This document shows positions 16,421 through 62,975 of a stretch of DNA of 64,000 bases, in pieces (the stretch's first letter is position 1; each line of letters begins with the position of its first letter). Source of the DNA: Octopus vulgaris (Eukaryota); the NCBI GenBank assembly GCA_951406725.2, contig OX597823.1, positions 4,030,001 through 4,094,000 of the forward strand. Reading direction: 5' to 3'. The notes under the pieces were generated by a model. The model was not told where the DNA came from and ran no database searches. It saw only the letters and a list, made by a program, of their open reading frames with translations. The position numbers and the translations under genes were made by a program.

Positions 16421-17000
16421 TATTTATACTTTCCACATACATAAAAATTCACATAATACTCTGGAATTATTGAAATTGGCATTGTTGTTGCTATGGCAAT
16501 ACTACTTTGTTTATGGACTTCCAATTGTATTTTTACTTTATTTAATTCAAGATGAAAGAGGTCATTTGAATTTATGATTCTATAACTTTATTGTGCCATA
16601 GACTTATTATTTCTTTGTACATTTCATGATCTGATTATTCCTAATTAAATTCATTTGAATGCTTCTGTTGTTGTTTCTTTAGATTTATAGAAATTATTGT
16701 TGAAAAATGTTTCTAAGTTTCTAATCTCCTGCTCAGTGTCGTCACGGATGAATGAGATTTCAGAAAAATCTACTACAGTAGTGTCATTGTAAACAAACAG
16801 ATTTTTTTCATTATATGTGTGTGGTGGATTGCTGAATCATTGGCACGTTGGAAAAATGCTCTGCAGTATTTGTTCTACTGCTAGATTTTGAGATCAAATC
16901 TTGCTGAGGTCAATTTTGGGAAAATCTACCATACTGGTGAATCAGTGTAATAGATATAATATATATATATGTGTGTGTGTGTGTGTTATATATATATATA

Positions 17001-18700
17001 TCCAATGATTGGTGTAACAGCATTATAGTCAACTGCTTCAAAGGCAAAGGTAATGCCTTCGACAGAAATAATTCAGAAGAATCCAAATTGCTGAACCAAG
17101 TGATGAAAGTCACAGAAAGGTTCATAGTTCAATTAATTAGGGAGAGAGTTAGTGTAGATGAAATATGGTTTGGATTTGTGCCAGGCAGGAGCATAACTGA
17201 TGCAATATTCCTAGTTAGGAGAAATATGTAGCCAAAAACGTTGTACCTGGCTTTTGTTGACTTGGAGAAAGCCTGGTCAATGCAGAAGCTGGGGATAGCT
17301 GAGTCGTTAGTGAGAGCAGTACAAGCCATGTACAAGGATGCAGCCAGTAGGTGAACGTTGGCAACAAGTATAGCAATGAATTCAGTGTACAGGTAGGAGT
17401 CCACCAAAGCTTACTTCTCAGCCCCCTCCTGTTTATCTTAGTCCTCCAGGCCTTAACAGAGGAATTCAAGATTGGCTGTCCCCGGGAGCCCCTCTGTGCT
17501 GATGACCTTGCTCTTATAGCTCAATCACTACCTGACCTAGAGAAGAAATTTCAGGTGTGGAAGCAAGGTCTGGAATCGAAGAGCTTTAGGGTTAATTTAG
17601 CAAAAACCAAAGTCCTAGTAAATAGGAAAACAAACAAATCACAAATCTCTTCTGGGAGATGGTCCTGCTTGGTATGTAAGAAGGGTGTTGGTAGAAACTC
17701 CATACGTTGTACCCAGTGCAAGCTTTGGACACATTAGAGGTGCAGCAATTATTAAAGGAAAGTTAACTGAGAATATAATCTTTGTGTGTGCTGAATGTGC
17801 AAGAACAATTAAGCACTAAAGATAAGCAGATAACAGGCTTCCTCAAATGCCCGGGGGATTAGTAGTAGTAGTAGATAGCTTCTGTTACCTAGGAGACCAT
17901 GTTAGCAGCAGGAGAGGGAGTTCTGAAAGTGTAGTTGTTAGGATAAGAACAGGCTGGGCAAAGTCCAGAGAGCTTCTAGCTTTGTTGGTAACTAAGGGAT
18001 TTTCTCTGTGTGAAAGGCAGAGTGTATGATACCTGTGTACACAGAGCTATGTTACTCGGCAGTGAAATATGGGATTTGACTATGGAGGACTTATGAAGAG
18101 TTGAAAGAAATGAAGCTAGTTGCTCCTCTGGATGGGTAATGTCAGTGTGCACATGTGACAGAGTGTAAATGACTTAAGAGGAAAACTGGGTCTAAGAGGC
18201 ATCGGATGTTGTGTGCGAAAGTGAAGACTACGTTGGTTTGGTCATGTGATGCATATGGATGAGGACAGCTGCATAAAGAAATACCGTGCTCTAATTGTAG
18301 AGGGTACCTGTGGAAAGGGTAGGCCCAGGAAGAGGTGAGAGAGGATCTTTGGATGCTGAGCCTCACTGAGGAAATTACAAGGGATGGGAGATGTGGAAAT
18401 TTGCTGTACTTGATATGACACATCAAGTTAGGTAAAACTGCTGTCTTCCACGCATATAGACTTGTCCTTTCAGGTGCTGGTGTTGCATTAATGCATCTGT
18501 GTTGGTGCTGCATAAACACGCTTATGCCAGTGGTACATGAAAAGCAGCCAGCACACTCTGTAAAGTGGTTGGCGTTAGGAAGGGCTTCCAGCCTTAGAAA
18601 CCATGCCTTAACAGACAGCTAGTCTGGACAGCCCCCCTGCTAGCTGCCTTCATTCAGCCCAAGTCAGCATGGAAAGTGGATGTTAAACAATGTTGATAAT
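17001..18700 (+). mobile_element. 5'-truncated, frameshifted RTE-clade LINE (RT domain, Cys-rich finger, 3' UTR)
   Basis: RT motifs in broken ORFs: FKGKG, FGFVPGRSITDAIF, AFVDLEKA, GVHQSLLLSPLLF, ADDLAL, NLAKTKV. Then CLVCKKGVGRNSIRCTQCKLWTH. Multiple stops and frameshifts. Inserted next to (TA)n. Confidence 0.92.
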
Positions 18701-23243: not shown

Positions 23244-24313
23244 TATTTCTATAAAATATTGATAATGAGATATACAAATAAAGATGTTTTTCTATTATTT
23301 TTTTTCGTTCGTTCAACTCCTGCAACTGTGGGAAAATAGATGTAAAAAAACAACATGAATGATATTTATATATTTACTCATTTTCATGCATATATGTATG
23401 TTTATTTGGATGTACAGGTGAAAGTAAAGATACTCAGTAGATACAGAAGTGTCTTTGATTCTACCTTTGGAATGACCAGAGCCTTGTAAATAGATTTATT
23501 AGATGGAAACTAAAAGAAGCTTATGTGTGTGTGTGTGTGTGTGTGTGTCTCGCCTTGTTTTGACATCATATGATGTTTGTAAATGAGTGTCACTGTCATC
23601 CAAATGTTTGTTTCCAGCCTCTAGAGAGAAACATGTCTAGCCATGAGGAAATGGTTGGCAGCAGGGAGAGCGTCCTGCTGTAGAAAATCCACCTCAACAA
23701 ACTCATGTAAGCATGGAAAATTGGATAATGATAGTGATCATCTAGATATATTTTAATTATCCTATGCTCATATTCATCCCCATAGGTACATATTCACATC
23801 TACACACACACACACAATCACATAATATGCCTACACACATACATCACTCTCCAAGTAATCTTCACAGAGTTGTATCAAAACTGTAGGATTTGATGGGATT
23901 CTGTTTCATATTTTATTAATCTGGCATTCGATTTATGGTAAATATTTACTATTACACCTGCCTTATGAAACAGGTGTAATTTCTGATCAGTGGAAGTTTG
24001 GAATAGCTCTCATCATCTCTTCATAGAGGAGGAAAAGTGCAAGAAACGGGTAATTGTTTCCTTCTGTCAAGAATTTTTTGTCACCAAAACTTAATTTTTT
24101 TTAACATTGCAAATTCTGTGCCTCTTTTCTGGTAAATTTCTTAAAAAAAAAAAAAAAATGGTAACTGAATAATTCTTTTCTGATGTTGTTAATGGCATTG
24201 ATACTATTGTTGTTGTTGTTGTTGTTGTTGTTGTTATTTCTACATATATCAATGAGATCAAACCTTGATATCTCATCTAACAGTGGTCTCAACTTACTTC
24301 CAAAAACATGCAG

Positions 24314-24331
24314 CATTGGAGATTCTCTCAG
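24314..24331 (+). CDS. shot: Putative 18-nt alternative microexon (HWRFSQ) of the spectraplakin CH1 domain
   Basis: atgcag|CAT TGG AGA TTC TCT CAG|gttagt, phase 0-0. It lies in the intron preceding the ASRRISE exon, where plectin has exon 2alpha (HWRAE). CTAAC branch-like motif at 24277-24281. Confidence 0.7.
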
Positions 24332-26304
24332 GTTAGTCATTCTCTTAGCATGGTTTCTTATTTTTACTATTGCTGTTGGTGTTGCTATTGTTGTTGTTGT
24401 GATGATTAAGCATTATTATTATTATTAATTGCTTTCTTGAATTTCTGCAAATTTAGAATTTACATTGCAGCATTTTGTTCATTGGTTAAAAGAAAAGTTC
24501 TGTCGTGTTTTACATTATTTTAAGCTATTTTTTTGCTCTTCTTTTGTTTTGCTCCTTGACATTACAATCAATTTTTGCTTAAGAAAATGTCCAGCAGTTT
24601 TTTTAAAAAAAAGTTTTTTTAAAATTAAATTTTTTGTTATGGTTTTATTTCTACCAGCAACTCACATGCTTCCGCTGTATTGAATATGTGTTTGTGTGCA
24701 TTCATGCATGTGTCTTGTTGTTATTGTGTTTGTTAGTCTCTGGCTTGTGGTTATTCCTGTTCTCAAAACTGGGGATCTTTCACGTTTGTTAGTGATTTTT
24801 GTATCTTCCCTCTGTTATTTGTTTAATAATTCAACAAAGTCTCAAATAATTCAACACCATGTTCAGCCTAAACTGCAGGTAGATGGTAATGATCAATGCA
24901 ATAGAAAAACCAGACTAAATATTTGAGATTTAATTTTGTACTCCCATCTAAATACCTTGATCATATCTTTTTAATACTGTTGTCCCCTGTAAAAAGATCG
25001 CCATTTATATACTCTTAGTGAGCACAATTATTATCTGAACGAAAAAAAGGGCTTTGTGTCCCTAGCAAAGAAATCCTTATCGGCAAATTAATAGAAGTGT
25101 TAATTCACCAAATTAGTTTAAGCTCATTTCTCTACATTTTAAGCTCACATCTTGGTATATTTGCTATTCCATTACCTCTAATTCTTTCAAAATAAGGAAC
25201 CAGTAATATGCTACTTTATTTAATCCATACCATTTTACTGTAAAAAAAATTTAAAAACCTGCTCTTGCACCTATGTAAGAAACCATTATTATTGTTATTA
25301 TTATCTTGGGTGGCAAACTGCTTACTGGCTTTTCATCCATTGCTATGTTTCAAGTTGAAATTCTGCTGGAGTCAACTTTGCCTTTCATCCTTTTTGGGAT
25401 CAATAAAATAGGTACCAGTTGAGCACTGGGGTCAATGTAATCGACTTAATCTCTCCCCCAAATTTTAGGCCTTGTGCATGCAATAGGACTATTATTATTA
25501 CTACTACTATTACTACTATCTACGATTAATATGCTTATTGCTGTTATTATTGCTATAAATAATAGGGCAGTAGATTGGCAGAATTGTTTGAGTATTAAAC
25601 AAAAGGCTTTACATAGTTTACTGCCCTTTGTCTTCTGAGGTCAAATCCTGTTGAAGTCAATTTTGCTTTTCAGCCTTTTTTGGTTGTTAAAACAAAGTCA
25701 AATACTGGGCCTGATGGTATCAATTATTCCCCTGCCCACTAGATTTCAGGCCTTGTCTCTATGCTAGAAACAGTTACTGCTATTATGAGTGTGTGTGAAG
25801 GCATGTGGCCTAGTGGTTGGGCTGTTGCACTCAAAATTGCTAGATTGTGGGTTCAGTTCCCTGATTGAGCGTCACACTGTGTTCTTGAGCGTCACACTGT
25901 GTTCTTGAGTAAAACACTTCATTTTACATTGCCCCAGCCCCCCCCTCGATCAGTGGGGGTTGTTGGCCTGCTTGCCTAGCCAGTGGGGTGTTGTCATTTG
26001 AAGGCTAAAACAATGCATAAGCGCATTGTGACCAGCAATGTTTAACAACATCTGATAGCCCGGTCAGTCACATGATACACACAAACACACCTATCCATCC
26101 CAACTGATCGAAGTCCCAAGCCCCACCACAATATTGTGTGTGTGTGGCCATGGGTTTCTCCTTGTGAAACACTGGACTTCAAGATTTTATATTCATGAGC
26201 TTAATCTCACCAATGAGATAAAATATTTTGTTGACCTGAAATAAGTACCACAATGTCAACCAAGTACTGCTAATGGACCCATAAAGTACTATCTAAAATA
26301 AGTA

Positions 26305-50650: not shown

Positions 50651-51524
50651 AAAAATTGTGATAAACACAAGAGGCAGCTTATTTGTTCCCTACGCTTGTT
50701 TCACCATTGTGACTATTAACATCCTCTGTAGTGGGTGTTCTTTGGATGCAAATCCAGAACAGTTCCTCAGGAGAATACATTATTACATTATCTCAACCCC
50801 TCAAATGCACCAGAAGTAGTCATACACCTGACTGTACACACCAGAAATAATACACACACACACACACACACACAGCAGGATTCTGTCAGTTTCCATCTAC
50901 TAAATCTACTCACAAGGCTTTGGTTGGCCTGGGGCTGTAGTAGAAGACACTTGCCTAAGTTGCTGCATGGTGGGACTGAACCCAAAGCCATGTGTTTGGG
51001 AAGTAAACTTCTCAACCACAACACCTGGACCTCATCAGACAGACTTCTTAACATGGAATGGAAGGCTCTGAATACAACCAAGCTTAGAATTTCTAGCAAA
51101 CAAGCAAACAATGCTATGATGAAGTTACAAATATAACCAAAACTCATTATTACAGCATTTTAATCAGGACTAACCCAGTAACACATCTGCTCAACAGATG
51201 GACGGATGTCGCGATCTGCTGATCCAGTTCTTTTTTGTTAGACGTTTACTAGCGACTGTACATTGTGGTATGTGATGACTGCCAAGTAAATCTAGGCTGA
51301 TTTCGAGGAAGAGTCCACGCTTGCTGATGAAACTTTACTTAATGGTTGAGTAAAGTCTCAAGATAAAAAGATAACTCTAATGAAGAATTGAGCATCAGTT
51401 CTGTAAATGGAATGAAATAAAAAAGTATTCATTGCAGAATGGAATGTTCTCTGGTGTCTTGGTAATCCTGGTATTTTTCAGGAAATGTGATGTTATTTTT
51501 AACTTCAGAAATAACTTTCTCTTG

Positions 51525-51550
51525 CTCTGCCTGCCTGCCTGCCTGCCTGC

Positions 51551-51610
<60 letters not shown>

Positions 51611-51975
51611 CACACGTGCTCACACACACAGTCTCTCTTTCTCTCTCACACCTTTTTGCCTCTCCACCCTCTCTCTCATCATCTCTTCCTTTTCCCCCTC
51701 CCTCTGTGTCACATTTTTGCCTCATTCAGTCTTTTATCACATCCCTTCTCTCTTATAGCCCCCCCCCCTCTCTCATCGCACCCTCCCTCCCATCGCACCC
51801 CCCCATCTCTCATCCCACCTTCCATCCCTCTCATTGCACCCTCCCTCCCTCCCTCCCTCTCATCGCACCCCCCCATCTCTCATCCCACCTTCCCTCCCTC
51901 TCATCGTACCCTCCCTCCCTCTCATCTCATCATCTCTCTCCTTCACTCCCCTTTCTTTTACTTTCTCTCCTCCAT
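51525..51975. repeat. Compound microsatellite (CCTG/TCTG/TC) plus pyrimidine-rich minisatellite (ctctcatcgcaccctccc units)
   Basis: Directly visible, ending about 100 nt upstream of the exon at 52076. Confidence 0.85.
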
Positions 51976-52075
51976 TGCAATAATTGTCATTAAATAAATA
52001 CTTAATCAGTCAAATTTCTTTCTTGCTGTATTTCACTAATTCTCAGATAATCTTTTAATTTTCTTTTCTATCCAG

Positions 52076-52165
52076 GCTTCTCGTAGGATTTCTGAGTTGT
52101 TTGACGATCTCAAAGATGGCCACAATTTGATTTCTCTCTTAGAAGTTCTCTCTCATGAAACGCTG
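52076..52165 (+). CDS. shot: Internal exon (90 nt, phase 0-0) of a spectraplakin (short stop/MACF1/dystonin/plectin family), CH1 actin-binding domain
   Basis: Pyrimidine tract ttttcttttctatccag|GCT...CTG|gtaagt. Translates [30 protein letters not shown], matching the plectin/MACF1 CH1 segment [30 protein letters not shown] and its 90-nt exon size. Confidence 0.95.
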
Positions 52166-53597
52166 GTAAGTATCCTTTCAGTTCTCTAGAATTGTTCCTG
52201 TTTAACCCGTGGTCAGCACCGATGATGCAGATTTACGATTGAGTTCATTTTTATCTATGATCATCTTGTCTCTTTGTATATAAAAACTGTTGGATATAAT
52301 TTGAAGCGTATTCAGCTGTTATCTCTAGAAGGTCAAGCAACCATATAGAGGCTCACTTGTAAACTCATGAGGTGGGAGGGGAGCCTTTGCAGTAGTGAGA
52401 TTTAGCAGTGACTTTTCCATACTTGCAAAGAGCTGATGGAATTTGTTGAGACAGATTTTCTATGGCTGGATGCCTTTCCTGCCACTGACCTTCACTTCTT
52501 TCCAAGCAAGATATTTTCCCATAGCTTGGCATGTTTTTATGGAAGACTGGAAACAAGGGACTGCTTGTATAACAGTGACACTTGTTTACAACTCTCAGGT
52601 GATACCCAGTTTCAAAGGCACAAACATACAAACACACACACACACGTATATTATAATCATTTAATGTTTGTTTCCTTTGCTGGTTTGGGTTGGACAGTTC
52701 AAGCGGGACTGGCGAGTCGGAAGACTGCACCAAACTCCCGTGTCTTCTTTAGCAGAGTTTCTGTAGCTGGATTCCTTTCCTTTGGATCCTTTCCTTCTCT
52801 GGTGCTGGTGAGATCTCCAAGAAACTTGCTAGAAAAGTTTTCCCAACTGAGATAGTGACTAGCAATATTGAGGGAAGCGGCTTTATGCTGCTGGATGATG
52901 AGAACTGAAGGTACGGACAGAGGGACAGGAATAAGTGTTAGGCTGTAAGAGAGATGTGTGGTTATCCCAGTTGGAGGAAAGAGAAGATGGTGGTGACAAT
53001 GTCAAGGCCTAACTTCAAGTGACAGGAAGGTGGATGTGAGGGGAGTAGCCTGCATTAGTTTGTTCATGGGAGTGTGAAGGAGGATGGCATATCTATGTAT
53101 ATATGTGTATAGTGGGCTTCTTTCAGTTTCCATCTTCCAGATCTACTCAGAAGGCTTTGGTTAGCCTAGGGCTATATTAGAAGCACCCATGATGTCATGT
53201 GGTCAGGAAACAAACTTCTTAAGCACCCGGCTATGCTTGCACCTATAATTAACATAATTAAGTGCAGGCTGTCTGTTTGCAGTGAGGTATTCTCTTCAGC
53301 ATGTTTAGCCACTCCCTTTGGCATTGAAAGAAAACAAACAAACAAACTAGAACAACATGGGAAAAGGTTTATGCAAAGTTAGTTGTTGTTGGGGGTGGTG
53401 GTGTTCAAACCACTACCATTTGAATGGTTAAGTAAACCAATGCTGATTGGCTGGTTCAGTGCAAGCACATGTGCAATTCTGTTAGTAAAAGATAAAAAAT
53501 ATCTCTGTAATTTGCCTTATCTGCTATTATTATTATTATTTCATTTACGCACAACAGATTAGACTGTTGGCAAAAAATTCCTAACATCAGACCACAA

Positions 53598-53760
53598 CTA
53601 ATGACCTTGGTTGCCAAGAACCCTCCTAACTATCCTAGCTGTCTCCAATAATATTGTTTTCTGGAGCTGCACTAAACTAGGTTTTATGCTTATTTCCTCT
53701 ATCCATCTGTTCAAATCTTTAGGGATTGTTCCTAATGCACCTTTAACTACTGGGATACAT
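53598..53760 (-). mobile_element. C-terminal fragment of an R4/Dong-like (restriction-like endonuclease) LINE
   Basis: IPVVKGALGTIPKDL...LQKTILLETARIVRRVL* is the typical R4-clade terminus. Flanked by (TAT)n at about 53526 and (AAT)n at about 53780. Confidence 0.7.
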
Positions 53761-53803
53761 TTCACACACACTTTCCATAACAATAAAAATAATAATAATA
53801 ATG

Positions 53804-54163
53804 ACAAGCACTCAGAGAGCACAATCCTCTGCTAAGGCAAACACCATCTTCTCAACGATTAGCCGGAGATGATTTTTAAAATGAGAATATCTGAAATAAA
53901 CTTGACTGCTTTCACAAACAAGAATACTAAAAGTGAACCCAACTGCTCTCAAAATTTAAGTAAAAAAAAAAACGGAAAAATAATCCAGAATCCTTGACTG
54001 GTACCAGATCAATCCCAAATCTAATCAGTTCGTGCCAGTCACAAGGCCAAACATCCCTGAAAGTTTCATCTGAATCCATCCAGCGGGTCTTGAGATATCT
54101 TGTCCATGGACAAACAAACAAGCATGACTGAAAACAATGCCTTCGCTTGGGTGGAGGTAATAA
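53804..54163 (-). mobile_element. Helentron/HINE-like non-autonomous element
   Basis: The minus strand starts ttattacctccacccaagcgaagg...tgttttcag...(ttgt)n. Copy of 45098-45458. Confidence 0.55.
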
Positions 54164-55535
54164 TCTGAAATTAAAGCTGTACATTGGTGAGGTGTGGAAT
54201 TTGGTGGGTGTCAGAATAAACAGAAATAAGTATAATGTGTGTTGGCGGTGGAACGATTAGCTACTGCTTCCTTCTGTCATCTTCATCATTGTTTCAACAC
54301 CAACTTTTCCATGCTTGCATAGAAGACTGGAAATAATCTCCGTCACTTGTCTGGTGCTGACACTTGTTTCCTATTTTTGGCTGATGTCAAGGCAAGGAGA
54401 CATGTGCACGTGTGTACACATCATCATCATCATTGTAATACCCACTTTACCTTGCTTGTATGAGCCAGATGGAATTCATTGAGGCAGATTTTCTATGGCC
54501 AGATACCCTTCAGGTTTCCTTGGTACATTTTGTTGTAGCATCAGTACTCGAGAGTTTATCAAATCCTCAAGACAAGTCTAAGAGTTTATTATTTACATTT
54601 GATGGATATTTGTCCTCCTCTTGCTCAGATAACTAAGTCCTTCAGTGTTTATTGGATGTTTGGCACCAGCACTAGTGAGGTTGCCTTGTACACAGCAAGG
54701 CAAAAGGCTTCACTACTCTGTTCACTCTAACACTACCAATAGAGTGAGCGAGTATAAGGGAGGATGCTCATAGACTATGAACTAGGGCAAGGAAGGAAAA
54801 GTGAAAGTATGATAAAGGAAACAATAGTGGTAGTATGTCATATGGAGAGATCAAATGGCAGGAGGTAATTATATATTTGCTGGCTGGGTAGTGTGATGGG
54901 TGTAAATTGTGACCTAAGGGAGAGAGAGACTGGTGGCTGGTAGTACAGATGGTTAATGTTAGATAGTAGGAGAAAGTGTGAGTGATGAATAATGTGTGTG
55001 TCTGTCTATATTTCATTCATGTACAATTGCAAAGAATGTAAGCCTCATAAAAAGAAACAAAAGGTTCCTTGAATAAAACCTAATGATTTACAGCCCCTCA
55101 CAGTGAACCAGTGATTAGCCTATTCTAAACTTCCAACCAACAAAATTGTGGTTCACAAATTGCTACATAAAATAAATCATTTTTTTTGTAAGCCACAAAG
55201 TGATTCCAATTCCCAGCTATAACTGTTTCATTTATATTTACATTGCTAATGTTCTTGGTTAAGGTATAAACATGGAATAAACTTTTATCTCCTCTATTAT
55301 AAAGCCGAGGTGTTGTGATTGTATAAGACTGCTGTTATTTTATGAGATTAGAAGCTGGTAGAAAGTTGGAGCCTAAGGAATGATAGTAAATCTCCATTCA
55401 GTAATTTAGTCATGTTTCTCTATGATTTAAACTGATGCTACAAATAAATACCTGTTATATGCTGGGCTTGGTTCGGCTGACTATATTCGCTCCCATGCAA
55501 ATTTTTCTAACTCTGAGCTGAGTATAGAAAATAAA

Positions 55536-56165
55536 ACTTTCTACTACAGGCACAAGGTCTGAAATTTTAGGGTAGGGATAAATCGATTGCATTGACCCCA
55601 GTGTGCAACTGGTACTTATTTATCAATCCTGAAAAGATGAAAGGTAAAGTCAGCCTAGGTGGTATTTGGACTCAAAACATAAAGATAGTGAAATGCCACT
55701 CAGCATTTTGCCTGGCATGCTCATGATTCTGTCAGCTTGTCTCCCAGAAATCATAATAATCCTTTTTACTATTGATGTAAGGCCTAAAATTTTGTGGGAG
55801 GGGGCCTAATCAGTTACATCAACTCAATGTGCAACTGGTACTTAATTTATCGGCCCTGAAAAGATAAAAGGCAAATTTGGCCTCTGCAGCATTTGAACTC
55901 AGAACGTAAAGGCACAAAATTTTAAGCATTTTGTCTGATGTGCTAATGAGTCTACCAGCTTGTTACCTTAGATGATGATGATGATAATTTCAAATTTTTG
56001 CACTAGGCCAGCAATTTGGGGGGAGGAGGTAAGTCGATCATATCGACCCCACTGCTTAACTAGTACTTGTTTTCACCCCAAAAAGGATGAAAGGTAAAGT
56101 TGACCTCGGCTGAATTTGAACTCCAAATATAAAGGTGGATGAAATGGTGCTAAGCATTTTGCCAC
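55536..56165 (-). repeat. Array of three diverged head-to-tail family-A SINEs
   Basis: The core gatgaaaggtaaagt...ctc recurs at about 55637, 55863 and 56086. Confidence 0.8.
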
Positions 56166-57724
56166 TCAGGTGTACTACAACTCATCAGAAAAGGGTAAAA
56201 GGAAGAAACAAACAGCAGCAATGATAACTGAAATTGCATAGACATAGGATGCAGGACGAAACAGAGAGAGAGAGAAAAGGGAACTATAATAAAAGCCATA
56301 TTATCACCTCCTATTGAAGGGGACTGTAATGTGTCCATGTTTTACTTAAGACCATTTCTATTTTTAGAATGACATTGTAAGGTAGGTATAAGAGGCCAGA
56401 TCTAGTCAGTCTGAACAAAAACCATGTAGAATATTTGGGCCAAATATGATCAGTTGAAATGCTAAAGGGTTAAACTAGGTGAATAGTTAAGTCTACCACC
56501 CAGGTAGGCCATGGAGGGATTTGAACTATGAATGCAAAGAACCTGGGTAAATACCACACAGGATCTTACCTAATCCTAATCCTCCTTATTAGATTAACAC
56601 TTTGTTACTGACCTTGAAAGAATAAAAGGCAAAGTTGACCTTAGTGGGATTTGAACTTGGAGCAGAGTGAGTCTGAACAGATACAGAGAAGCAGTCTGAT
56701 GCTCTACTAACTCTGCCAAAAAGGACAGGGTGGTCATTGTTAAAACACTTTTGATCATAGAGCTACTTAAGAAGGACTGAACTGGGTCAAAACAACAACA
56801 ACAAATTTCTATACTTTGGAAATTTTTAGGTTTATCTTGGAATTAATTAGAAGCAACGTAATGGGATATTTTAAGCTGAAAACCTGATGATGCGGAGTTA
56901 GATTTTCCTAACAGATATGGTGTGTGAACATGTGTAGTTGTTAACAAGCTTGTTTAGCAAATTCGTGGTTTTGGGTTCAGTCCCACTGTATGGCATCTTG
57001 GGCAAATGTCCTCTACTGGGCCAACCAGTGCCTTATGAATGAATTTAATTTGGTAGATAGAAACTGTGTGGAAGCCCTTTGTGTGTATGTCTGTCTGTCT
57101 GTCTGTGTTTGTCTCCCACCACCATTTAACAACTGGTATTGGTTTGTTTACATCCTTGTGACTTAGCAGTTTGGCAAAAGAGACCAATAGAATTATTACC
57201 AGATTGAATAATAAACCCTTCAAGGTGGTGCTCCAGCATGGCCACAGTCCAATGACTGAAGCAGGTTTTATTTCTTTAGGAGTGGAATGAGTAACAGGGG
57301 AGCAGCTAAGACAGCAGAACACTTTACAGTCTTTACTTTCATCCTGCTAAGGTTAACTTTGCCTTTCCATCTCTCTGGGGTTTGCAAATCCCTTTTGTTA
57401 GACACAAACCAACTGCTTCCTCTTATCCCTCTTTCTTGACACAACAGTTTTTTGAGTCTATTTAAATGAAATTATGTGGACCCTTGCTCAATTAATAAGC
57501 TGACTTTTGACTGTTTTTTGTAAGTTGGTAAAATAGATAACTGTAATATACTCAGGTTGACTCAACTGTCTCTAACCAAAGGCTAAACCTGTCTCAAAGT
57601 CAAATGAAAGAATTCAGTTCCATTCCAGTTTATTTTATTTTATGCTTTATTAAATTTTTCTGAGTTGTCTCCCTTCTTTGTTTCTCATTAATGTTCTTTC
57701 ATTGATTAACACTTATGTGTATAA

Positions 57725-57758
<34 letters not shown>

Positions 57759-57807
57759 TATGTATGTTATATATGAAGTATTTAAAATCTTTTTTTTTTA
57801 CCCACAG

Positions 57808-57885
57808 CCGAGAGAAAGAGGACACATGCGTTTTCACAAAATGCAAAATGTTCAGATATCACTGGATTTTTTACGGTACAAAGGG
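57808..57885 (+). CDS. shot: Next internal exon (78 nt, phase 0-0) of the same spectraplakin CH1 domain
   Basis: ttttttttacccacag|CCG...GGG|gtaagt. Translates PRERGHMRFHKMQNVQISLDFLRYKG (cf. plectin [26 protein letters not shown]). Joins in frame to 52076-52165. Confidence 0.95.
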
Positions 57886-58532
57886 GTAAGTTGGCAGTCA
57901 ATGTATTTCTGGAATTAAACTTTGCATACCACACCTGGCAGGTTTTTTGGGCTTGTTTGTTTTTGTTTTCGTTAATTTAGGGGGATTTAAAAAAATACTT
58001 TTCTATTTAATCTAAATTCCTTTGGCAATAAACATTTAGGGACTTCAGAGAGAGAGAGAGAGAGAGAGAGTGTGTGTGTTTGTGCAAAATATAGCACATG
58101 TCTGTGATTAAGAATTTCACTTCATCAGAAGGTTCTTGCTTTGATTGTACAGAATGGTGCCTTGAGTAGATATCTTCTACCTTTTTACTCTTGTCTTGGA
58201 TTGAACCCAAACCTTGTGAGTTGAATTGGGTTGATGTAAAGCGTGTGGAAGCCTCTTCTGACAGGTTGTACCTCTGAGTCTAAGAACCAGATTTGTTATC
58301 TAATGTGTTATGCTAAATTTCTTTAACCTTTTTCTTACCATATTTCAGTTGAAAGACTCTACCTTTGTTTCAAATAATTGTTTCAAATAATAAAGAATTT
58401 TGGTTAAATAAATTTGTGATTGTTAAAAAAGTGTTTGAAACCTAAATTAACATGAAATTTTGATGGAAGATTTTAATTTAGATTACTCCAAAAGAGGAAT
58501 CTTGCTTAATAGAGCTGAGTCTGGCCTCGGGT

Positions 58533-62218: not shown

Positions 62219-62975
62219 TTATATGGAAAGTAATGAATGATAGGTGAAATAAATAGTTTGTTCCTTGCGGAAAGTGATGTTATTTTCCGCCGGCATGTTA
62301 TGACTTTCAAGCCATTTTTGGTCTTCCTGCTTCAGCCATATATAGAAGCTGGCCTTTTCGACTGCCTCCTGTACTCTCCTTATTAGTTTTCTCAGCTCCA
62401 AGCTAGAAAAAACAAATCTTATTTTGAATAGCGTTGTCATTTTCCTTTCAATGAAGCCCGTAGCCCCCACTGCCAGGTGGCAATACTCGACATTCCATCC
62501 CTGTTCTCTGCACTCTTCGATTAGTTTTTCGTACCTCTTCTCCTTTTGTTTCTCTGCATTGTCGATGTTCTCTTCCCATGGCACTGTCAGTTCTAGTAAA
62601 ATTCCTATTCTCTATTCTCTGTCCCATAGGACTAAATCTGGTCTTTTTGTCGTTTTTATGAGTGGAAATATTACCAGTCTTTCCAAATCCATGGCCACCT
62701 CCCAGTATCCCTTCCATCTTTCGTCTATCTCGTATATGGTTTTATATCCTTTTCCCTCCTTCTGGAAGTATACTTTCCTGTGCTTTTCCACTTTTGGCTA
62801 CTCTCCCCTATTGTACCTCTTGATCTTATCCTTGAGTGCTGCACTTATGATGCCGAGGACTTGATTATACTGCCATGTATATCTTTCTAGTGTTAGTCTG
62901 AAGTTTGACAGAACATGTCTAACCGTCGCTTTCTCTCCGCATCTACACTCATCAGTTGTTTTTATGTTCCACCAC
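62219..62975 (-). mobile_element. 3' fragment of a HERO-like non-LTR retrotransposon (zinc knuckle plus restriction-like endonuclease)
   Basis: CRCGEKATVRHVLS...RYTWQYNQVL knuckle, then RPDLVLWD...LELTVPWEENI...KEKRYEKL...C.EQGW...LAVGATGF...VEKASFYIWLK. Frameshifted. (TAAA)n tail near 62205-62220. Confidence 0.85.

Follow-up and report, generated by a model that had tools for sequence, protein, structure and literature searches.

The locus treated here raises two questions. Is an 18-nt open stretch between two actin-binding domain exons of Octopus vulgaris a real microexon, and does it share descent with exon 2alpha of vertebrate plectin? The window is the whole stretch of DNA analysed, 64,000 nucleotides of contig OX597823.1 (positions 4,030,001 to 4,094,000). 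Positions below are those of the window unless C10 is given. The features needed are the following.

24277..24281, + strand: CTAAC, branch-point-like, a putative branch point for the short acceptor; it abuts the long acceptor.
24282..24283, + strand: upstream AG, presumed acceptor of the long form, as the long-form proteins suggest.
24284..24313, + strand: 30-nt 5' extension, encoding WSQLTSKNMQ before HWRFSQ; the frame is open, giving a 48-nt exon at 24284-24331.
24309..24313, + strand: TGCAG, short-form acceptor; its TGC overlaps both the acceptor and, in the long form, the Met-Gln codons.
24314..24331, + strand: 18-nt microexon, the short form, CATTGGAGATTCTCTCAG, encoding HWRFSQ; phase 0-0, with the peptide at the same junction in O. 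bimaculoides.
24332..24337, + strand: GTTAGT, the shared donor, read from the sequence.
24348..24352, + strand: GCATG, candidate Rbfox site, 17 nt downstream, in the context AGCATG and not TGCATG.
52076..52165, + strand: downstream CH1 exon ASRRI...ETL, 90 nt, the same length as mouse Plec exon 3.
57808..57885, + strand: next CH1 exon PRERG...YKG, 78 nt.

The microexon at 24314-24331 is preceded by ...catgcAG and followed by GTTAGT. The upstream exon, encoding helix A of CH1, lies outside the window (C10:4007419-4007480, 62 nt, donor GTATGT) and ends in phase 0. The phase 0-0 of the microexon agrees with this exon and with the downstream exon 52076-52165. The flanking introns are 46,833 nt (5') and 27,744 nt (3', to the ASRRI exon). 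An earlier note on this DNA had described an AG, a frame-preserving 18-nt HWRFSQ unit and a GTTAGT donor, placed 27.7 kb upstream of the ASRRISE exon, with CTAAC upstream and GCATG downstream. All of these are confirmed by the sequence and the flanking exons. The 201-nt stretch around the microexon has a single full-length match in the 2.8-Gb genome, and the ASRRI exon is a 100% match to O. bimaculoides proteins.

Splice-like flanks by themselves mean little. A scan of positions 1-52075 for stop-free YAG-(9 to 30 nt, multiples of 3)-GT returned 451 candidates. Two of them start with HW and two pass a strict donor filter, and the HWRFSQ microexon is the only one to do both. The stretch could be splicing noise or a chance intronic pattern of the O. 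vulgaris genome, as the 451 look-alikes in the window would allow, and no junction letters from O. vulgaris were seen. However, the peptide is found at the same junction in annotated molluscan proteins, identical in those of O. bimaculoides and Haliotis and near-identical in Mytilus, and the noise explanation is scarcely credible. Annotated proteins with HWRFSQ at the same junction are the decisive evidence for a real exon. The octopus microexon is almost certainly a real alternative exon. It had been called hidden and likely missed by automated annotation, which does not hold: both RefSeq XP_052827043.1 and the older model XP_014786349.1 of O. bimaculoides include HWRFSQ, the RefSeq isoforms being computed models.

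Contigs from four of 24 sequencing runs, which are guessed to be RNA, were aligned to 51500-58500. The contigs start at 52073 in three of the four runs and at 52074 in the other, a run with a different organism code. Because the intron ends in CCAG, a start at 52073 fits ...TCAG joined to GCT (inclusion) and a start at 52074 fits ...TAAG joined to GCT (skipping). This one-base reading of runs only guessed to be RNA is indirect evidence that the exon may be both included and skipped in O. vulgaris. The exons 52076-52165 and 57808-57885 are joined in contigs of at least two of the four runs. Between 52165 and 57808, no 3alpha-like exon is seen in the 10 O. bimaculoides models, and two contigs join the flanking exons directly. 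A metagenome scan for the exon pattern gave two matches, both without the molluscan extension and with 51-54% GC; they are probably chance and were not used.

The exon has two acceptors, at 24284 and 24314, and the octopus 18-nt microexon is its short form. The earlier note described only the 18-nt form, and the second acceptor at 24284, 30 nt upstream of the short-form one, is an addition to it. Among ten O. bimaculoides models, four have the short HWRFSQ (P0001, P0014, P0016, P0017), three the 16-residue long form (X1, X2, X4), and three skip the exon. All three states are already modelled among the RefSeq 'plectin' isoforms X1-X9 (XP_052827041-049). Include, extend and skip forms are seen directly in these models and indirectly in O. 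vulgaris. One residue of the extension differs, K in O. vulgaris versus N in O. bimaculoides X1-X9. The long form is WSPLPVDYMQHWRFTQ in Mytilus edulis (CAG2194122.1) and WYPLPVDYMQHWRFSQ in Haliotis cracherodii (XP_071119797.1). A pair of skip and include models (P0144, P0274) is found in two species of Haliotis. Judging from these proteins, the 16-residue long form is old within molluscs.

The CTAAC at 24277-24281 is about 33 nt ahead of the short acceptor with no AG between them, and it has the CUAAY form of a strong branch point. A CTAAY at about 18-40 nt upstream is found for 60 of the 1752 YAGs in the window. A branch point and its AG need a minimum spacing. With branching at CTAAC, the long AG would be too near, and the short acceptor and the 18-nt form would be used. 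Branching further upstream would permit the long acceptor and the 48-nt form. Since this CTAAC, which would serve the short acceptor, lies directly next to the long one, it can be inferred that branch-point choice decides between the 18-nt and the 48-nt form.

It was implied in the earlier note that the exon, the same by descent, is neuron-specific in octopus and driven by the eMIC (Srrm234). The 18-nt form has the length (at most about 30 nt) and the frame preservation of an eMIC exon; the 48-nt form is not a microexon. The CTAAC motif and a weak pyrimidine tract (55% and 59% pyrimidines at the two acceptors versus 73% and 86% at the neighbouring exons) fit a weak-3'-site architecture. According to table S2 of PMC8797185, an 18-nt fly shot exon, DmeEX0009489, is eMIC-sensitive; it follows a 62-nt exon and is followed by a 60-nt neural exon, DmeEX0009490. 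In the same table, the 15-nt mouse Plec exon MmuEX0035673, before a 90-nt exon, is classed as ASE, which by the definitions of that paper is neither eMIC-regulated nor neural-enriched. Fly and mouse exons were matched to the octopus exon on size and order rather than on sequence. By this match, the position of the fly exon speaks for eMIC control in octopus and the mouse class speaks against it, as does the use of 2alpha in muscle plectin 1d (PMC10177080).

The UGC motif does not decide the matter. The TGC at -5..-3 overlaps the acceptor CAG, and the 109 nt ahead of the acceptor contain no other; among the 944 CAG of the window, 65 are TGCAG. Mytilus and Haliotis also keep the Met-Gln that covers the TGC in the long form. 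As independent eMIC evidence the TGC was rejected, since it overlaps the acceptor and the Met codon, and the earlier reading of it as an SRRM4/eMIC motif is weak. The AG-free zone at the short acceptor is 30 nt, no longer than the 29 nt at both neighbouring exons, and does not count as a long exclusion zone. Downstream, a GCATG occurs within the next 25 nt at about 3% of window positions. A TGCATG is present at +374, and such a motif is found within 500 nt at about 21% of window positions. As evidence for regulation, the TGC and GCATG motifs are weak. On the other side, UGC is not strictly required for the SRRM4 response (10.1101/2024.09.17.613571). Given the fly class, and given that UGC is not strictly needed, control by the eMIC in octopus neurons is conceivable but doubtful.

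The host gene is a plakin or spectraplakin with a CH1-CH2 actin-binding domain (ABD). Exons matching CH1-CH2 are colinear on C10 from 4.005 to 4.134 Mb, and a GAS2 domain match lies on the same strand at C10:4287503-4287856, about 233 kb downstream of the microexon. CH1-CH2 together with a same-strand GAS2 therefore indicates a spectraplakin of the Shot/MACF1 type, despite the RefSeq name 'plectin'. The GAS2 exons are presumably part of the same transcript as the CH1-CH2 exons. The best PDB matches of the octopus ABD are plectin and MACF1. A tree of 35 rows groups vertebrate PLEC, MACF1 and DST in a single clade (100/99), which makes the octopus gene co-orthologous to all three; the invertebrate branching in the same tree is largely open (14/31 inner branches). 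A plectin-repeat search of the O. vulgaris genome gave no match, and the control search was equally silent.

Several other observations concern this gene. The O. bimaculoides models X1-X9 (264-295 aa) end just past CH2, whereas O. vulgaris has a GAS2 domain downstream, about 153 kb beyond. As the models stop after CH2 and GAS2 is further downstream in O. vulgaris, the O. bimaculoides gene appears to be split in annotation. Six of the ten O. bimaculoides models contain a second optional insert, of 15 residues, at the CH1-CH2 boundary, which would fall between C10 4094403 and 4131824, outside the window. It is probably a separate 45-nt cassette, because in O. vulgaris it does not run on from the exon on either side. 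Two alternative first coding exons (C10 about 4.005 and 4.007 Mb) lead into the helix-A exon. The end motif of one of them also precedes the ABD in human plectin and in Saccoglossus, Mytilus and Tachypleus, and its presence in these four suggests an ancient alternative first exon. Within the window, the open frames at 16941-17734 (+) and 62222-62611 (-) look by eye like pieces of non-LTR retroelements, reverse transcriptase-like and endonuclease-like.

How widely is the insert distributed? Among 360 proteins fetched, the helix-A anchor in its looser version was found in 300. HW occurs within 12 residues after this anchor in 33 of these 300 rows, from five phyla; these counts indicate presence and not frequency, because the searches favour insert-bearing sequences and the rows are not independent. 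Vertebrate plectins, including shark, contain HWRAE, HWKAE, HWKVE, HWWVK or HWRPE. The hemichordate Saccoglossus (acorn worm) contains HWKHDE, with a skip and an include model (P0276, P0022). Priapulus contains HWHYVQ. Chelicerates contain HWRYLE or HWRYVE, and insects contain HWRYVK, HWKYMK, HWKYSK or HWKYLK. The insert has five residues in vertebrates and six elsewhere (molluscs, hemichordate, priapulid, arthropods). Only H-W is invariant; the third position is R, K, H or W. The earlier note gave an HWKYAK insert for Drosophila Shot. HWKYAK itself was not observed, though similar HW[RK]Y inserts are found in other insects and the 18-nt shot exon matches by size.

Under a stricter anchor, which dropped 67 of the 360 rows including the HW rows of Priapulus (P0303) and a bird (P0289), the insert is present in 14 of 58 plectin-type rows and absent from all 97 rows whose continuation is of the DST/MACF1 type. 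It can be inferred that, among the vertebrate paralogues, an exon of single origin was retained only in plectin. The HW insert was not seen in the single rows of nematode, flatworm, rotifer, cnidarian and lamprey, where absence is unproven because skipping isoforms could explain it. Two starfish rows (P0128, P0267) show a short insert at the same junction that starts with His and is without Trp, and may be a diverged microexon.

The exon structure points in the same direction as the peptides. The octopus microexon, whose six-residue peptide starts with His-Trp, sits in a phase-0 intron, with the helix-A exon on its 5' side and the 90-nt exon on its 3' side. Octopus and fly share the 62-nt length of the upstream exon, and octopus and mouse share the 90-nt length of the downstream one. 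In five read-through gene models (fish, a plectin-like record, insects), Val is the next residue past the helix-A exon, which is what reading into a phase-0 GT would give. Because His-Trp inserts are at the same junction across taxa and the flanking exon sizes match fly and mouse, common ancestry is likely. The bilaterian ancestry proposed in the earlier note is thereby likely as well, with His-Trp inserts at the identical junction in five phyla.

Short exons might instead have been gained independently at a permissive loop in several phyla, as type I convergence. Recurrent exon gain at the same position is described as widespread, and common in bilaterians (preprint 10.64898/2026.09.05.749416), and unrelated inserts do share this junction, namely a Cys-rich exon in arthropods and a 10-residue extension in molluscs. 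However, convergence would require five or more lineages to have arrived at the same His-Trp start, and each independent gain would yield H-W-[RK] at three fixed positions with a probability of 5-7e-5. It would also have to produce the six-residue length common to molluscs, hemichordate, priapulid and arthropods. Independent gain is improbable on these grounds, and the octopus microexon very probably shares descent with plectin exon 2alpha.

The arthropod insert at this junction deserves a separate description. A conserved Cys-rich block of 15-21 residues is found at the same junction in 12 arthropod proteins (P0029, P0091, P0104, P0145, P0180, P0181, P0266, P0280, P0286, P0287, P0316, P0330), with or without the HW microexon. 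It is likely the 60-nt neural exon of fly, DmeEX0009490, and possibly forms a metal or disulphide module.

Inclusion adds 6 or 16 residues directly after CH1 helix A. As the earlier note had held, the junction is that of plectin exon 2alpha: HWRAE in PDB 1MB8 and 1SH5/1SH6 aligns to HWRFSQ with one gap. In a folded model (64-row alignment, mean pLDDT 68.8), which best matches plectin ABD structures, helix A ends at the inserted His and the remainder is in a loop. Confidence is low at the insert, with a pLDDT below 50 at 58-61, and the model shows no actin contact. The insert would lengthen helix A at its end, together with the surface loop that follows. By altering the surface beside helix A, it may retune F-actin binding; in muscle and nerve, by analogy with mouse plectin, it is predicted to raise or retune it. 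According to a review, actin binding in skeletal muscle is significantly enhanced by 2alpha (PMC8464768). Tissue restriction and an effect on actin binding in octopus are presumed by this analogy, and an actin-affinity role of the octopus microexon is favoured slightly over its opposite.

The exon could be the same by descent and yet act mainly on a non-actin partner, for example microtubules, a chaperone or an adhesion receptor. In mouse, plectin fragments carrying 2alpha and 3alpha co-sediment better with microtubules, 36.5-52% (PMC7891324). HSC70 bound P1d-8(2alpha) baits and not P1f controls, a comparison confounded by the first exon (PMC10177080). The invariant Trp in the loop would also suit a protein-binding site. 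However, neither PMC7891324 nor PMC10177080 tests 2alpha by itself, and in the literature consulted the sole effect assigned to 2alpha alone is on actin (the review passage in PMC8464768). A main effect on another partner is accordingly rather unlikely. The reading preferred here as a whole, an exon that is included, skipped or extended, likely inherited from bilaterian ancestors together with 2alpha and predicted to tune F-actin binding in muscle and nerve, is probable. The earlier interpretation of the microexon is partly supported by these results.

Much of this is already known: RefSeq contains the octopus exon, 2alpha has been described and crystallised, and exon tables list the fly exon. 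As the exon is already in databases, the new part is the cross-phylum link and the conserved molluscan second acceptor. A statement that the octopus, plectin 2alpha and fly exons are one exon was not found in the literature searched, which covers few subscription papers. Word searches of PMC8797185 (main text), 10.1101/122010, PMC3352950, PMC12626424, PMC12992808 (for general terms) and PMC4353693 gave no such statement. The exon or gene is unmentioned in the searched text of PMC4353693 and PMC12626424, and the Shot review 10.1101/122010 notes only a variable CH1 length. The preprint 10.64898/2026.09.05.749416 compares 20 bilaterians including O. bimaculoides and, among ancestral neural exons, names with confidence only those of APBB and MADD. 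Plectin and shot are absent from its text, and its supplements may list the exon group.

On the current view, the alternative exons of different phyla have been rewired almost completely. A microexon with a recognisable sequence in five phyla is a rare counter-example to this view. Between fly and mouse, four position-shared eMIC exons are reported (PMC8797185). The in vivo role of plectin exon 2alpha, an old loose end, becomes testable in Drosophila shot. It can be speculated, with somewhat less than even confidence, that this is the third sequence-conserved microexon of the bilaterian ancestor, after those of APBB and MADD, and the first for which solved structures and a biochemical effect are reported. 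It would be a nerve-muscle actin switch, kept only in plectin among vertebrates, and the loop would carry second dials: the branch-point-controlled 10-residue extension in cephalopods, bivalves and gastropods, and the Cys-rich exon in arthropods.

The closest known system is vertebrate plectin exon 2alpha (15 nt, HWRAE), which is likewise optional, in phase 0, starts with HWR and lies at the junction of the helix-A exon and the 90-nt exon. In muscle it is used in plectin 1d, as noted above, and in neural plectin 1c it is used with 3alpha (PMC7891324). The octopus exon differs in being 18 nt and in having a second acceptor that gives 48 nt. Its host is a GAS2-bearing spectraplakin, unlike the plectin host of 2alpha, and its flanking introns are 46.8 and 27.7 kb, compared with less than 200 nt for mouse 2alpha. 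Drosophila shot DmeEX0009489 is 18 nt long and follows a 62-nt exon, as in octopus. Other insects have HW[RK]Y.. and then the Cys-rich block, about 20 residues. In arthropods the addition is thus a separate Cys-rich exon after the microexon, whereas in molluscs it is 10 residues before it, added through an alternative acceptor. The neural microexons of APBB1/2/3 (6 nt) and MADD (9 nt) are also short, in frame and conserved across bilaterians. They were called on conserved neural specificity, whereas the plectin counterpart of the octopus exon is used in both muscle and neural tissue in mouse.
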